DNA from: a virus
Virus genome (UHGV): UHGV-1577189
Reading direction: 5' to 3' (one strand)
DNA: 16,327 nucleotides
Position numbers and translations under genes: made by a program. Under the pieces are notes generated by a model that did not search any database, had not been told where the DNA came from, and saw nothing but the letters and a program-made list of their open reading frames with translations. Each line of letters starts with the position of its first letter. Within the stretch, counting starts at the first letter, position 1. Shown piece after piece: positions 8,173-15,365 of the stretch.

Positions 8173-8829
8173 ATGAAAAGCAACGACGAGAACATCAAGA
8201 AAGAAATAGGTCTGCGCATTCAGACTCTACGGAAACAATCCGGCATGACTGCCGGAGATCTCCAGCAAGTCACTGGAATAGGCTTAAGCACCTTGCAGAA
8301 CTATGAGGCCGGATTAAGACAACCATCGATACCTGCCATCAAGAAAATCGCGCACGCCCTGAAAGCATCAGCGCCTTATATCGCGTGCTTAACAGATAAC
8401 CCGTTCCCACCCCAGAATACTAACGCTCCTGTTATTCCTGGGCTTGTAGCTATAAAAAATGACATAGCATCGCACGCCGGAGAAAAGCCAGTGCTGGCGA
8501 TAGAACAGGAGATTCTACGAAGCAAGAACATCAACCCATCGTCTCTGTCAGTTCTCCAGAGCAACGATGAGTTAATGTCACCAACAATATCCCCTGGCTC
8601 CCAAGTCCTGATTAATACAGACGATACAGAGATTCATGAGGGGATCTATGCCCTTGAAGACAGAAATGGCCTGGTTGTTTTGAGGCACTGTAGAGTCATA
8701 CCGGGTGACAATGCTGTTATGCTGTCAACCGAAAGGGATGCTGAAATGAACACTAAGCATCTGAATAACGAGGAATTTAAGCGTTATAAAGTTCTTGGCC
8801 GCGTAGTTAGTGTTGTCAACTGGTTATGA
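8173..8829 (+). CDS. CI-like phage repressor: N-terminal HTH_XRE plus C-terminal S24 (LexA-like) domain
   Basis: 218 aa; HTH LRKQSGMTAGDLQQVTGIGLSTLQNYEAG; C-terminal beta-rich domain with an Ala-Gly dipeptide (SHAGEKP) and conserved Lys (RYKVLGRVV); catalytic Ser context is atypical (ELMSP). Confidence 0.8.
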   Translation: MKSNDENIKKEIGLRIQTLRKQSGMTAGDLQQVTGIGLSTLQNYEAGLRQPSIPAIKKIAHALKASAPYIACLTDNPFPPQNTNAPVIPGLVAIKNDIASHAGEKPVLAIEQEILRSKNINPSSLSVLQSNDELMSPTISPGSQVLINTDDTEIHEGIYALEDRNGLVVLRHCRVIPGDNAVMLSTERDAEMNTKHLNNEEFKRYKVLGRVVSVVNWL

Positions 8830-9425: not shown

Positions 9426-9446
9426 AAACACATGGAGTCTCGACAA

Positions 9447-10100
9447 ATGACTATCTCTGTAGGTATTTTCAACGGAAAAGGCGGCGTAACCAAATCAACA
9501 ATTGCCCGTGCTTTAGCAGTTGCTTATGCAAAGGCTGGCTGGAATGTATGCCTGATCGATATGGATGTGCTTAACGGAACGGTAACGCGTTGGGTACAAC
9601 GCAGAATGGCCAACAATATCGAACCAGCAATCGCGGCGCAGCCGTGCGGCACACCATCACAAGTCCAGAAAATCATCGAATCAGAAGTATACGACCTGGT
9701 TATCGTTGATGGCGGTGCCTACGCATCTGAATCAGTACCGAAGCTATCTGAATTTCTGGATATGGTTATTTTGCCAACCCGATTCTCTACCGATGACCTG
9801 GAAACCACCGTTAACACTGCTCACGGCATCGTTAAAAAGGGTGTGCCAATCAAGAAAATTTGCATGGTGTTTTCCGGCGCGGCTGAAAATGAAGCTGACT
9901 ATATTGAAGCCCAAGAGTACCTGGCTAATACGCCATACTTTGTTGTCGATAAGTACATTCCCCACAAGCCAGCTCTGAGCAAAGCTCAGGATAAGGGCTT
10001 AAGCCTCATTGAATGCTCATACGTTGCGCCACGCAAAAAGGCAGACGACGTTATTCAGGGGATTATCAACCAGCTTGAGGCTCTGACTACTGCCGCGTAA
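9447..10100 (+). CDS. parA: ParA-family partition ATPase (small type Ib, no N-terminal HTH)
   Basis: Deviant Walker A GKGGVTKST; about 217 aa. ATG at 9447 is preferred over 9432 because GGAG lies 9 nt upstream. Confidence 0.85.
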   Translation: MTISVGIFNGKGGVTKSTIARALAVAYAKAGWNVCLIDMDVLNGTVTRWVQRRMANNIEPAIAAQPCGTPSQVQKIIESEVYDLVIVDGGAYASESVPKLSEFLDMVILPTRFSTDDLETTVNTAHGIVKKGVPIKKICMVFSGAAENEADYIEAQEYLANTPYFVVDKYIPHKPALSKAQDKGLSLIECSYVAPRKKADDVIQGIINQLEALTTAA

Positions 10101-10143: not shown

Positions 10144-10392
10144 ATGGCCGCACCATCAAAACCACCAAAGAAGAACAGCAAAGGCGTACCGCCATCGATC
10201 GAACAACCGCAGGTTTTCGACCCGACTGAAACGCCAACCAGAACCAAATCAGGTGGGGCACAAATGGCGTTTAACGTCGACCCTGAATTTAAACGCGAGT
10301 ACAAAACGTTCGCCAGTTCAATGGATATGTCATTGAAAGAAGTGCTGACAAAATCTTTTGAGTTACTCAAGGCTCAATACAACCAGAAGTAA
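10144..10392 (+). CDS. ParG-like ribbon-helix-helix centromere-binding protein
   Basis: 82 aa, basic disordered N-terminus; C-terminal MAFNVDPEFKREYKTFASSMDMSLKEVL resembles the TP228 ParG RHH segment; RBS AAGAGGGG; directly downstream of parA. Confidence 0.6.
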   Translation: MAAPSKPPKKNSKGVPPSIEQPQVFDPTETPTRTKSGGAQMAFNVDPEFKREYKTFASSMDMSLKEVLTKSFELLKAQYNQK

Positions 10393-10604: not shown

Positions 10605-10718
10605 ATGTAGCCATAAAAAAGGCGGGCAACCAACCCGCCTCATTAGAGGTCAACGTCTCTTAGAAACCATCAAATTCGTCATACCGCTTTTTCATATCAA
10701 CCCCGTATTGAAATCGTA

Positions 10719-10733
10719 ACCACATCTTGTGGC
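10719..10733. promoter_or_regulatory. Isolated operator-like site ACCAC-ATCTT-GTGGC
   Basis: Same ACCAC-N5-GTGG architecture as the immunity-region operators, but about 1.8 kb away, between two hairpins. Confidence 0.35.
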
Positions 10734-10792
10734 TCTTACGGTATATAAGCTACTGCAATGGTAAACAGCTATCAAATGCAGGTTGCAGTAAA

Positions 10793-10812
10793 AAAGGCCC
10801 CCGAAGGGGCCT
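10793..10812 (-). terminator. Rho-independent terminator for the small peptide gene
   Basis: Stem AGGCCCC/GGGGCCT with loop CGAA; a T-run follows on the minus strand. Confidence 0.5.
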
Positions 10813-10817
10813 AATCG

Positions 10818-10940
10818 CTACTTGCTGCTAATGTTTATCGTCACATTCAGAGCGTTATCAGTAATCTTCCAACCCTCCCCATGTGGCGTAAACAAAGCTC
10901 CAGTAACAACGATAAAAATACACATGTAGTATTTTTTCAT
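10818..10940 (-). CDS. Small hydrophobic peptide (40 aa: MKKYYMCIFIVVTGALFTPHGEGWKITDNALNVTINISSK), candidate type I toxin-like membrane peptide
   Basis: ATG at 10940 with RBS AAGGG 8 nt upstream (the track start at 11000 is TTG); Lys-rich N-terminus then a hydrophobic segment; terminator immediately downstream. Confidence 0.4.
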   Translation of the reverse strand: MKKYYMCIFIVVTGALFTPHGEGWKITDNALNVTINISSK

Positions 10941-11219
10941 TGTGTGGCCCTTACAGGCCGTTTCACGGCATCCCCACCGACGAAAATGACGCGAGAGCAA
11001 GCACGCTGTTTGTGCCTGCGTGGTACGGCAAGTGGATAATCCTTTCCTGAAAGTCAGTGCCCGGGTGCGAATCGGCGGAAAGGCCCCAAGCCATATTACA
11101 CGTCATACCCTTCATAATGAAGGAATAAAAAACGCTTTTATTACATGAGATTACACGTAAATAAGTTAAAAACCTTCATTTTGCATGAGCTAATGAGCTA
11201 AATTTTTTTATATGAATAG

Positions 11220-11352
11220 TGGACTATTCACCTCAGTTGGGTAAGAATGTAGTTGCTGTTTGTGCTTGCGTGGTTGTATTAGTACAACGACGTTATGCTG
11301 AAAGGACCGCGAATCCGATCAGCACGAAAGAACCGTCCTCAATAGGGCGGTT
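11220..11352 (+). ncRNA. Candidate small RNA ending in a rho-independent terminator
   Basis: Terminator ACCGTCCT-CAAT-AGGGCGGT followed by T7 (11325-11352); carries a 20-nt copy (11255-11274) of a sequence at 11005-11024; possible promoter TTGCAT at 11181-11186. Confidence 0.35.
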
Positions 11353-11429
11353 TTTTTGTTTCTGCCTACCAATAAACCCACGCTATGTGGTTGTCTCTGT
11401 TAAAATCCCTCTGTATTGACATAAATGCG

Positions 11430-11528
11430 CCATTGGTGGACACTTTCCGAGCCGTAGCAAAATCTACGGTCGGGATTGGAACCCCGATAATCATCATGGC
11501 GCATACCGCGTTAGCGGTTTTTTTATGC
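11430..11528 (+). ncRNA. Candidate c4-like antisense RNA of an immI-type antirepressor module
   Basis: Three consecutive hairpins (CCGTAG/CTACGG; TCGGG-ATTGGAA-CCCGA; ACCGC-GTTA-GCGGT plus T7) upstream of a small ORF and ant; the loop GATTGGAACC recurs in the leader hairpin loop at 11638-11647. Confidence 0.35.
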
Positions 11529-11689
11529 GTAAAGCACTGCTACACCCAAATTATGGTGGGGCGTGCGGGGGAGTCGTAAGACTCGCCGGATTCCATGGTG
11601 ACCGGTAGTTCCAACCCTGTACGTCTCACCACCCAATGATTGGAACCAGACGGTGGTGAGTATCCTTAACCTTTAAGGGAACTATCACC

Positions 11690-11881
11690 ATGACAAACTT
11701 ACCCCATGACTATTACGTCAACCTCGTAAAGATCCTTCTCAAGAAAGCCTCATACGCCGATAAATTCCGCCTGGCTGAAATCATCGAGCGCGAAGCTATG
11801 CGCATCGCCAGCAACGATAACGCTGTTTCTGACGCAAAAATCTCCCTCGTAACCAAAGTAGTTATGGGAGGTGCAAAATGA
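11690..11881 (+). CDS. Small ORF (63 aa) translationally coupled to ant (icd-like position)
   Basis: RBS TAAGGGA; its stop overlaps the ant ATG (ATGA at 11878-11881); preceded by a 9-bp-stem leader hairpin at 11625-11662. Confidence 0.45.
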   Translation: MTNLPHDYYVNLVKILLKKASYADKFRLAEIIEREAMRIASNDNAVSDAKISLVTKVVMGGAK

Positions 11882-13023
11882 AAACGCTTCCGACCGTTAA
11901 CACCCTACAGCCTATCCTGCATAACCAAATCCCTGTCATTACTACCGAGTTACTAGCACAGCTTTACGGCACTGAGCCGGTGCGTATTCGCCAGAATCAT
12001 CATGAGAACAAAGCACGTTTCGTTGAAGGGAAACACTTTTTCAAAGTTGTTGGTAATGACCTTAAAGAATTGCGGGTAGCTTTAAACTACTCTCAAAATC
12101 CAGTTTCACCTAAAGTCCGCTCCCTCATCCTCTGGACAGAACGCGGGGCTGCACGTCACGCTAAAATGCTCGAAACCGATCAGGCGTGGGATGTATTCGA
12201 ACGGCTGGAAGACTGCTACTTCAACCAGAACGCGCAAACGGCCGCGACCGTAACCGTCTCACCAAACAATGCTCGTGAGGTTGTCGATACGCTCAACGCT
12301 AAACCAATGTATTACATTAAGGTGTGCAACAACGAGCCACTCACAACCTCAGCCGATGTTGCCCAGGCATTCAGCACCACAAACAATTCCATCGTTATGG
12401 CCATCGATGCGTTACGCATTCCTCGCACAGCTGCGGCGCGTCACTTCTTTAAAGAGCAACGACCGCTGGAAGGAAGCGACCGCGAAATAACAATCTATCG
12501 CATGACAAAAGACGGATTTACCTTGCTCATGGAGAGCATCGACGGTCCAAGCGTGAAAGATATCAAGCTGGCCTACATTGAAGCCTTTAACGCTATCAGC
12601 AGCGTGTTAAAAACACAGTACGAGCGTGATCTGGCTAAACGACTATACCAGGAAAAAACGATTATCCGCGCGGCAACAGAGCATAATCGGCTATTAACGG
12701 AACCGAACTACAGGAAGGAACTAATCAAGGAGTTTGACAAGGCAACAGGGAAAACCAAAGCGGCGCTAAGTCTGCCAGCAATGACTCAGGAAAATGTGAT
12801 ATCAGCCTTACTTCTTGATCTGCTCAGAAACGCCAGAGCACTTATCAGCTTTGACGAAAACCTGAATCCTCAGCTCAAGCTACTACCACCGACAGGCAAA
12901 GTAGTCGACCAAGCAGAACACAACAGCATACTCAGCGTACTGGATGCAAACCTGCCAGCCAGGACACTACAGGATCTGATAAAAACATGTGCTGATAAGC
13001 TGGCACAGAAAAGCAGACCATAA
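11878..13023 (+). CDS. ant: Phage antirepressor Ant
   Basis: 381 aa; N-terminal ITTELLAQLYGTEPVRIRQNHHENKARFVEGKHFFKVVGNDLKEL and SLILWTERGAARHAKMLETDQAWDVFERLEDCYF match the antirepressor N-terminal domain; RBS GGGAGG. Confidence 0.8.
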   Translation: MKTLPTVNTLQPILHNQIPVITTELLAQLYGTEPVRIRQNHHENKARFVEGKHFFKVVGNDLKELRVALNYSQNPVSPKVRSLILWTERGAARHAKMLETDQAWDVFERLEDCYFNQNAQTAATVTVSPNNAREVVDTLNAKPMYYIKVCNNEPLTTSADVAQAFSTTNNSIVMAIDALRIPRTAAARHFFKEQRPLEGSDREITIYRMTKDGFTLLMESIDGPSVKDIKLAYIEAFNAISSVLKTQYERDLAKRLYQEKTIIRAATEHNRLLTEPNYRKELIKEFDKATGKTKAALSLPAMTQENVISALLLDLLRNARALISFDENLNPQLKLLPPTGKVVDQAEHNSILSVLDANLPARTLQDLIKTCADKLAQKSRP

Positions 13024-14712: not shown

Positions 14713-15012
14713 TCAGATGTTAAACGCTATTCGTTTTCCTGTGGGAAGCTCAACATCCAGGCTTAATTTGCCTCCCATAGCTTCAACGTAACGCTTTAAT
14801 GTCGCCAGCTTTAAATCATTTCCGCGCTGCTCCAGCTTTGTTACTGCTGGCTGGCTTATACCCATCGCCTCAGCAACCTGTTTTTGTGATAACTGGAGTT
14901 CTTCACGCATCATCTGCAAGCCGACCTCAAGAATCATCTCATCTGCCATTTCTTTAATTCGCGCCTGGCTTTCAGGTGAACGGCTGGCAATCACCTCATC
15001 TAATGTTCTCAT
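14713..15012 (-). CDS. higA: HigA-like HTH antitoxin (addiction module antidote)
   Basis: 99 aa; HTH LSQKQVAEAMGISQPAVTKLEQRGN; directly downstream of and overlapping a RelE/HigB-like toxin gene. Confidence 0.7.
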   Translation of the reverse strand: MRTLDEVIASRSPESQARIKEMADEMILEVGLQMMREELQLSQKQVAEAMGISQPAVTKLEQRGNDLKLATLKRYVEAMGGKLSLDVELPTGKRIAFNI

Positions 15013-15365
15013 TACTTGCTCTCCAGTGTGTTCAGATGTGCTGCAAACTCATCCTCAGCTATACGCACCAGTTTTTCATAAAACCGTTTATCGTTACTTT
15101 TGTCTCCTGCACAAAGAACGATGGCCCGGCGAATCGGATCGAACGCATAAAAGGCTCTTATCGGACGGCCAGAAAACTGAACGCGAAGCTCTTTCATATT
15201 TTTGTACCGAGAACCTTTTACGGTATCGGCATATGGCCTGGGTAACTCAGGTCCGTAAACCTGTAGCTTTTTCAAATCAGCCAAAACCTTTTCCTGAAGA
15301 GCGTCTTCTTGCTCATTTAGCCAGTCGTCAAATCGCTGGCTAAAAAGTACCGTCCACATGCTCAA
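15012..15365 (-). CDS. higB: HigB/RelE-family toxin (addiction module killer protein)
   Basis: 117 aa; motifs LRVQFSGRPIRAFYAF and IVLCAGDKSNDKRFYEK match the killer-protein family; toxin-first gene order is typical of HigBA. Confidence 0.7.
   Translation of the reverse strand: MSMWTVLFSQRFDDWLNEQEDALQEKVLADLKKLQVYGPELPRPYADTVKGSRYKNMKELRVQFSGRPIRAFYAFDPIRRAIVLCAGDKSNDKRFYEKLVRIAEDEFAAHLNTLESK

Follow-up and report, generated by a model that had tools for sequence, protein, structure and literature searches.

A probable timP/TimR-type toxin–antitoxin locus in a family of Escherichia phage-plasmids

The viral genome UHGV-1577189, a stretch of 16,327 nt analysed here as a whole (the window), carries between positions 10790 and 11357 two putative short genes facing away from each other. 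The minus-strand gene would give an mRNA of ∼299 nt with an open reading frame (ORF) of 40 amino acids, the plus-strand gene a small RNA (sRNA) ending in a strong terminator. An initial annotation of the sequence had proposed a divergent type I toxin–antitoxin system without naming its family, and this proposal is upheld: the minus-strand unit matches the ryfA/timP mRNA, the plus-strand unit is homologous to the sRNA TimR/RyfB and a 20-nt sequence common to both falls into the second stem-loop (SL2) of the mRNA leader. We put at about 85% the probability that the locus is a timP/TimR-family (timPR) system carried by a phage-plasmid of ∼46 kb. The name ryfA was used earlier for the timP mRNA, whose product TimP is a small protein of the inner membrane that is toxic; TimR, the divergently encoded sRNA repressing timP, was formerly called STnc2070, and RyfB in Shigella (PMC7667032).

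The mRNA, its leader and its peptide

The Rfam family ryfA (RF00126) matched the minus strand at 11088–10790 over its full length (cmscan of the window; model positions 1–296 of 296) with 134.6 bits against a gathering score of 80 (E = 7.6e-35). Among complete E. coli genomes, a blastn search found a chromosomal gene, annotated in RefSeq as timP, to which positions 10888–11086 are ∼70% identical. Other type I families (zor-orz, shoB-ohsC, hok-sok, tisB-istR) did not reach their Rfam gathering scores in the window; the best sub-threshold type I match, OrzO-P, had 15.3 bits against 60 and covered the terminator only.

The ORF occupies 10818–10940 on the minus strand, stop codon included, which is +149 to +271 of the mRNA; it is nested within a longer ORF of 60 amino acids with a TTG start and encodes MKKYYMCIFIVVTGALFTPHGEGWKITDNALNVTINISSK. 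The Salmonella timP ORF extends from +145 to +261 (PMC7667032). Both signals that the initial annotation had assigned to this ORF are present. A Shine-Dalgarno sequence, AAGGG, lies 7 nt 5′ of the ATG (10952–10948), and a terminator scan found downstream a stem of seven pairs, six of them G-C, at 10812–10795, followed by a T-run. This intrinsic terminator (10790–10812) coincides with the terminal hairpin of the Rfam ryfA model.

The peptide aligned with the NCBIfam model NF040796 (toxic_TimP) over positions 1–40 of 40, with E = 1.2e-4 and 22.2 bits. Since this score is below the curated cut-off of 45 bits, the peptide is left unannotated by RefSeq on the plasmids that carry it. The exact peptide is present in nr under the name ‘hypothetical protein’ only, and no family for it was found in Pfam or PHROGs. 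Its identity is 33% to TimP of E. coli K-12, 36% to a Pseudocitrobacter homologue and 26–36% across chromosomal TimP homologues. The pattern MK.Y.C..L.V.G.LF...W...NV, with the NV motif near the C-terminus, is common to the peptide and these homologues. The C-terminal half is distinct from that of chromosomal TimP (GEGWKITDNALNVTINISSK).

The peptide had been described as containing a hydrophobic helix. The N-terminus is indeed hydrophobic (mean Kyte–Doolittle hydropathy 0.89 for residues 1–20 and −0.34 for the remainder), and the most hydrophobic window of 11 residues begins at residue 7, as it does in K-12 TimP. A segment resembling a Sec signal describes it better than a simple transmembrane helix. 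In Salmonella TimP such an N-terminal segment remains uncleaved.

The leader of Salmonella timP folds into four stem-loops, SL1–SL4; TimR binds in SL2 and the Shine-Dalgarno sequence is trapped in SL4 (PMC11228461, PMC13000454). Translation requires a 7-bp pseudoknot between the upper part of SL1 (site 1) and SL3 (site 3) (PMC11228461), as well as a contact of the single-stranded site 2 with the 5′ flank of SL4 (site 4), which frees the Shine-Dalgarno sequence (PMC13000454). Binding of TimR breaks the pseudoknot (PMC11228461, PMC13000454).

We aligned 14 homologous leaders, five from phage-plasmids or viruses and nine from chromosomes. The consensus fold computed by RNAalifold recovered SL1–SL4, with compensatory changes in 12 of 35 pairs. 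The Shine-Dalgarno sequence (10948–10952) is inside the 3′ side of SL4 (∼10946–10959), and one SL4 pair (alignment columns 134 and 147) shows a compensatory change from U-A to C-G specific to the phage-plasmid clade.

The positions of sites 1–4 were inferred from complementarity and from the text of the Salmonella papers. Site 1, CACUGAC, is at 11053–11059 (mRNA nt 30–36, upper SL1), and site 3, GUCGGUG, at 10975–10981 (nt 108–114, loop of SL3); the two pair at 7 of 7 positions in the window. Over the 14 homologues, 100% of the alignment cells are paired and three of the seven pairs have changed on both sides, values that were reached in none of 500 shuffles, while registers slid along the alignment gave 17–72% pairing. 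The chromosomal form of this pseudoknot is C(G/A)CUGGC with GCCAG(U/C)G; the phage-plasmid clade is double-changed at two positions. Site 2, GCCGU (11025–11029; nt 60–64), and site 4, ACGGC (10957–10961; nt 128–132, the 5′ flank of SL4), are also paired in 100% of cells. As far as can be read from sequence, every RNA element demonstrated experimentally in Salmonella timP is present in the phage-plasmid copy, several of them backed by compensatory changes. The divergent clade offers independent comparative support for the timP pseudoknot and the proposed refolding mechanism.

One could argue that the minus-strand RNA is mainly regulatory, a role reported for RyfA in Shigella as well as in avian and uropathogenic E. 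coli, that the plus-strand RNA is its sponge or regulator and that the ORF is incidental or secondary. In uropathogenic E. coli, a ryfA deletion had phenotypes that alleles with a disrupted TimP-like ORF complemented (PMC8205139), and it has been described as still undetermined whether E. coli ryfA encodes a toxic peptide (PMC13188913). Such an explanation does not account well for the behaviour of the ORF, which stays open, at the same place and of one length, in every phage-plasmid and viral locus, with no frameshift or early stop in any variant compared. When the window is compared with L010, the most distant of the mobile-element homologues, differences are mostly at codon positions 1 and 3 (14, 2 and 19 at positions 1, 2 and 3), 10 of the codon changes are synonymous, and one phage-plasmid variant has an in-frame deletion of 3 nt. 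By the codon-position pattern and this deletion, therefore, the ORF behaves as a coding sequence. Moreover, the conserved sequestration of the Shine-Dalgarno sequence, the pseudoknot and the site 2–site 4 contact would be sensible only if translation matters. A mainly regulatory role of the RNA is for these reasons unlikely.

The small RNA and its pairing with the leader

The TimR/RyfB-like sRNA would occupy 11255–11357 on the plus strand. It comprises a 5′ seed (11255–11274), hairpin 1 (11273–11288), hairpin 2 (11297–11323) and a terminator with a stem at 11331–11352 and a run of seven T at 11351–11357. The terminator, already noted as strong in the initial annotation, was missed by a simple scanner, though folding confirmed a strong hairpin. 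The sRNA aligned over its full length with nine chromosomal TimR/RyfB homologues from E. coli K-12 and other Enterobacteriaceae, whose genes sit upstream of timP. All share the same order of elements: a 5′ seed of variable sequence with CYUGCRU at its end, a short hairpin, then a conserved one of the form GCUGR-AARGRCCGCGAAYC-YCAGC, an A-rich linker and the terminator. In the consensus fold, hairpin 2 has two pairs that differ in a compensatory manner between the phage-plasmid and chromosomal clades (G-C to A-U), and the z-score of the sRNA fold is −5.2.

No Rfam family matched the sRNA, even at a relaxed threshold. A resemblance to RNAI was below threshold (25.9 against 47 bits) and was rejected, being attributed to the shape of several hairpins plus terminator that the two RNAs share. 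At minimum energy the isolated sRNA folds with its 5′ seed paired to the 3′ half of hairpin 2 (11255–11323), while the family-type fold leaves the seed free.

A degenerate pattern for the TimR hairpin, searched in public collections, was found in nine viral contigs and 19 genome loci; all nine contigs and 17 of the genome loci were scanned with Rfam. The opposite strand near the motif carried ryfA in 8 of the 9 contigs and in 14 of the 17 genome loci. In the ninth contig the motif is 7 nt from the contig end, the flanking DNA being missing, and in two of the three genome loci without ryfA it is within ∼230 nt of the end of the stored stretch. An anomalous locus from Salmonella enterica subsp. 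arizonae (L023) was left out of the alignments: its TimR motif (1180–1207) overlaps the 5′ end of a ryfA match on the opposite strand (1187–1458), which is short (272 nt), and the antisense overlap is perfect over 51 nt. The locus may be rearranged, or the overlap may be an artefact of delimitation.

The 20-nt sequence reported in the initial annotation, GCTGTTTGTGCCTGCGTGGT, is at 11005–11024 and again, with C/T at position 12 as its single mismatch, at 11255–11274. Allowing up to three mismatches, neither strand of the 16.3-kb window has any other match; a separate repeat search reported the same pair, and none of 200 dinucleotide-preserving shuffles of the window gave any match. The repeat is therefore real and far beyond chance. 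As both copies are on the plus strand, a minus-strand mRNA over 11005–11024 is complementary to a plus-strand RNA over 11255–11274, and the single difference makes a G-U pair, just as had been claimed. The predicted binding site (+65 to +84 of the mRNA leader) takes in the loop of SL2 (10997–11019) together with the 5′ half of its stem and its 5′ flank. No further target of the seed with at least 17 of 20 matches was found on either strand of the window.

Duplex energies were computed for the seed against the SL2 region, with shuffled seeds as controls; RNAduplex runs on the full-length RNAs had given meaningless long bulged duplexes and were replaced by this comparison. The cognate duplex has 20 contiguous pairs, one of them G-U, and an energy of −41.1 kcal/mol, compared with −17.6 ± 3.4 kcal/mol (minimum −30.7) for shuffled seeds. 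Over 13 cognate loci, in a register chosen around the conserved GCARG/CYUGC anchor, a choice that favours pairing, 90% of cells are paired (70% in shuffles, 26–44% in slid registers). As many as 16 of the 21 pairs have changed on both sides; the sequences differ from locus to locus and complementarity is kept. Within the phage-plasmid variants, seed positions 3 and 5 changed together in both copies (T/T to C/C), whereas positions 12 and 17 changed on one side only, preserving G-U or A-U pairs.

We also computed duplexes between RNAs of the window and RNAs of the K-12 chromosomal locus. Their energies, ∼−20 to −22 kcal/mol as against −39 to −41 for cognate pairs, are at background level; thus the phage-plasmid and K-12 systems are predicted not to cross-react, and chromosomal TimR of E. 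coli K-12 is not expected to neutralise the phage-plasmid toxin.

The repeat could also be thought of as a DNA element, such as a site for a partition or replication protein near parA, with no RNA pairing involved. Its copies are in direct orientation, as in iterons, and lie ∼600–860 nt downstream of a ParA-like gene (9432–10100) and its small partner ORF (10144–10392). Yet chromosomal timPR loci, which have no par genes, also have two copies, placed alike in the homologous RNAs, with repeat sequences that are unrelated and still mutually complementary. In addition, tolerance of one-sided changes compatible with G-U pairs fits RNA pairing and not protein–DNA recognition. We rejected on these two grounds a protein-binding repeat of the iteron or parS type, and consider any such origin of the repeat extremely improbable.

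A strict sigma-70 scan of 10650–11700 returned no promoter; candidate promoters were taken instead from blocks conserved in an alignment of seven phage-plasmid variants (A1). Within the locus, this alignment varies most in the intergenic region, where only three blocks are conserved. Transcription of both RNAs is predicted from these blocks. For the timP-like mRNA, a candidate −10 hexamer, TAATAT (minus strand, 11098–11093; TAANAT in 7 of 7 variants), would set the 5′ end at ∼11086–11088, near the start of the Rfam model. The candidate sRNA promoter (plus strand, 11220–11248) consists of −35 TGGACT (11220–11225), a 17-nt spacer and −10 AAGAAT (11243–11248); it matches the consensus at 8 of 12 positions, below the threshold of the strict scanner, and some variants have TGGACA or TAAAAT, closer to consensus. 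Its −10 hexamer would place the sRNA 5′ end at ∼11255. The initial annotation had expected an sRNA of ∼130 nt starting at ∼11220; from the conserved hexamers the sRNA is probably shorter, ∼97 nt (∼11255–11352). With a 5′ end at ∼11255 the seed would therefore form the 5′ end of the sRNA; in Salmonella TimR the seed is located in this way (PMC7667032).

The intergenic sequence 11089–11254 (A1 columns ∼310–490) is far more variable than the flanking RNAs or the par genes. It contains a near-perfect palindrome of 15 bp, CCTTCATAATGAAGG, at 11109–11123, overlapping the predicted −35 region of the timP-like promoter, and a partial copy, CCTTCATTTTGCATGA, at 11173–11188, 64 nt away and between the two promoters. 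The palindrome is kept in 4 of the 7 variants and absent in three; it may be an operator for some regulator.

Distribution and genomic setting

A query with positions 10780–11360 was 100% identical to a part of the Escherichia fergusonii plasmid pRHB41-C23_4, a circle of 46.4 kb. This plasmid carries RepA, ParA, holin and tail-fibre genes and is therefore a phage-plasmid; its timPR region bears no annotation. Over 90% of its length the window is 98.7% identical to the infectious Yersinia myophages vB_YpM_39, 41 and 44.

In PLSDB, the locus was found at ≥80% query coverage in 58 plasmids with 82–100% identity, and the neighbouring par genes were found in 58 plasmids with 95–100% identity; presumably, the two sets of plasmids are the same. 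Given the equal counts and the lower identity of the locus, it seems to belong to the core of the family and to evolve more quickly than the genes around it. The locus is present in 72 of 5,426 complete E. coli genomes, nearly always on a plasmid; in E. coli ATCC 25922 it is on plasmid NZ_CP009073 at 20303–20874 (99.1% identical). A distant version (L010 and L036; ryfA score 162 bits) was seen on a viral contig of 80 kb and in a metagenome-assembled genome of Buttiauxella. The locus is, in sum, conserved and at the same time fast-evolving in an Escherichia phage-plasmid family that includes infectious Yersinia phages.

This distribution bears on whether the locus might be a decaying timPR relic of chromosomal origin, non-functional on the phage-plasmid. 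Decay could be suspected from the ryfA score of 134.6 bits (227–317 for chromosomal copies), from the peptide falling under the NCBIfam cut-off and from promoters that are weak relative to consensus. A relic would hardly be expected to be as frequent among plasmids as the par genes next to it, or to have escaped frameshifts and early stops in every variant; furthermore, clade-specific compensatory changes preserve the pseudoknot, SL4, hairpin 2 of the sRNA and the seed duplex. We regard decay as very unlikely.

The locus sits between the partition side of the element, with a CI-like repressor (8173–8829), the ParA-like gene and its partner ORF, and an immunity region. The latter has isrK (11451–11524; Rfam, 70.2 bits) and a C4 antisense RNA (11549–11636; Rfam, 84.3 bits), followed by a 63-amino-acid ORF and an ORF6N/Rha anti-repressor (11878–13023), and resembles immI of phage P1. 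On the 80-kb viral contig the distant timPR version again shares a stretch with isrK and C4.

In the window, isrK and C4 are directly upstream of the 63-amino-acid ORF, which is named ‘ash family’ in the identical plasmid; this ORF and the anti-repressor are in the stretch 11690–13023. Two copies of a 10-mer, GATTGGAACC, at 11474 and 11638 and an arm with partial complementarity at 11608–11624 could be target sites of C4. On the ATCC 25922 plasmid (L001, 6551–7123) and in many relatives, the TimR-like terminator and isrK are separated by a helix-turn-helix gene of 573 nt on the opposite strand; the window does not have this gene, and only ∼100 nt (11352–11450) lie between the two features.

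Relation to known systems and possible role

The closest well-studied counterpart is timP/TimR of Salmonella Typhimurium, with which the locus shares an mRNA of ∼300 nt, a leader of four stem-loops and a Shine-Dalgarno sequence in SL4 (PMC7667032, PMC11228461, PMC13000454). The SL1–SL3 pseudoknot and the site 2–site 4 contact are found in the phage-plasmid copy too, and an ORF of ∼40 amino acids with a signal-like hydrophobic N-terminus begins at ∼+145 in Salmonella and +149 here. In both cases the sRNA is encoded divergently upstream and its 5′ end pairs over 18–20 nt with SL2, far upstream of the ribosome-binding site. The two differ in the C-terminal half of the peptide, in the recognition sequence and in location: the Salmonella genes are between sseA and sseB, the phage-plasmid copy between partition and immunity genes. 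The candidate divergent promoters of the phage-plasmid copy are ∼165 nt apart, and the distance from the TimR hairpin motif to the mRNA 5′ end is 209 nt, compared with ∼116–123 nt in chromosomal loci.

RyfA1/RyfB1 and RyfA2 of Shigella dysenteriae and ryfA/ryfB of K-12 (PMC5333039) belong to the same RNA families as the phage-plasmid copy; at the K-12 locus the layout is divergent too, and the TimR-like sRNAs form matching hairpins. Chromosomal loci of K-12 and S. flexneri contain two tandem TimR-like copies, one of which matches the resident timP leader, whereas the phage-plasmid has a single copy. The matching copy is the distal one in K-12 (L003, 868–972 and 1190–1300) and the proximal one in S. 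flexneri (L020); the remaining copy in each appears to be an orphan.

Among type I systems of extrachromosomal elements, hok/sok of plasmid R1 is similar in that its small membrane toxin is made from a stable, structured mRNA and its antisense RNA is labile. It is a module of post-segregational killing and has no sequence or Rfam relationship to the phage-plasmid locus. The hok mRNA has to be processed at its 3′ end and coupled in translation to mok, and sok is a cis-encoded RNA overlapping its target; timP, on the other hand, becomes active by refolding and needs no processing, and TimR comes from a gene in trans, adjacent to its target (PMC11228461). The pairs zorO-orzO, shoB-ohsC, tisB-istR1 and dinQ-agrB likewise consist of divergent adjacent genes whose RNAs pair via a short repeat that the toxin leader contains; no sequence relationship links them to the phage-plasmid locus, and their toxin mRNAs require processing (PMC7667032). 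The likeness to zor/orz and shoB/ohsC that the initial annotation had pointed out was a sound one, as the discoverers of timPR name the same systems for their shared gene arrangement (PMC7667032, Discussion).

By homology with Salmonella timP, the system could operate as follows. The minus strand would be transcribed into a stable mRNA of ∼300 nt (11088–10790) encoding a TimP-like inner-membrane toxin of 40 amino acids, with its Shine-Dalgarno sequence locked in SL4. Translation would require the pseudoknot between upper SL1 and the loop of SL3, along with the site 2–site 4 contact that opens SL4. The divergent TimR homologue of ∼97 nt would pair through its 5′ end with 20 nt at SL2, destabilise the active fold of the mRNA and so block translation. 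Toxin would be made only once the sRNA, the shorter-lived of the two RNAs, is exhausted.

Several observations weigh against a functional timPR system at this locus. The peptide scores 22.2 bits where the curated NF040796 cut-off is 45, and its C-terminal half is unlike that of chromosomal TimP. The site 2–site 4 contact has only 5 bp here and shows one-sided changes with no double changes; covariation therefore adds no support for it. The isolated sRNA buries its seed in the minimum-energy fold (−44.1 kcal/mol, compared with −31.1 with the seed free), and both promoters are weak relative to consensus, neither being called by the strict scan. Finally, native expression of TimP in a Salmonella timR deletion strain did not slow growth (PMC7667032), so that toxicity at natural levels is uncertain even for Salmonella TimP.

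Homology to timP and TimR, conservation of the RNA elements one by one and complementarity of the two RNAs are shown by the sequences; transcription of both units, toxicity of the peptide and the way in which it is repressed are inferred.

As to function, one could speculate that the phage-plasmid timPR is an addiction (post-segregational killing) or superinfection-exclusion module of the plasmid prophage, which would make it the first timPR with a clear role. This idea is favoured by adjacency to the par genes, by presence in all family members examined and by a seed mismatched to K-12; the locus, placed between par genes and immunity region, apparently belongs to the core gene set of the family. 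The unslowed growth of the Salmonella timR deletion strain with native TimP speaks against it as well. No phenotype has been found for the chromosomal systems; in Salmonella, neither growth, persister formation, biofilm morphotype nor P22 infection was clearly affected by deletion of timPR (PMC7667032). We offer the suggestion tentatively, at rather less than even odds. If it is true, the phage-plasmid is a natural setting for working out what TimP does; a fixed copy beside partition genes points to a testable role in either plasmid-prophage maintenance or phage exclusion.

Systems of the timPR kind are already known and well studied. New with respect to the literature searched are a mobile-element clade of timPR, its divergence to below the NCBI naming threshold and its fixed place in a phage-plasmid backbone; we found no report of a plasmid- or phage-borne timPR or ryfA in that literature, the coverage of which was incomplete and does not prove absence. 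The NCBI TimP model misses the phage-plasmid clade and Rfam has no TimR family; because of these gaps the locus is invisible in current plasmid annotation, including that of the reference strain ATCC 25922.

Two other features of the element can be mentioned. A type II pair is also present, with a Gp49/HigB-like toxin (15012–15365, minus strand) and a helix-turn-helix antitoxin (14713–15012, minus strand). A DNA invertase (phrog_125, Hin/Cin-like) is encoded at 1763–2317 on the minus strand; in Salmonella phage SJ46 the stretch that matches it carries the annotations pin invertase and tail protein, pointing to a tail-fibre segment that can be switched, as in P1 or Mu.

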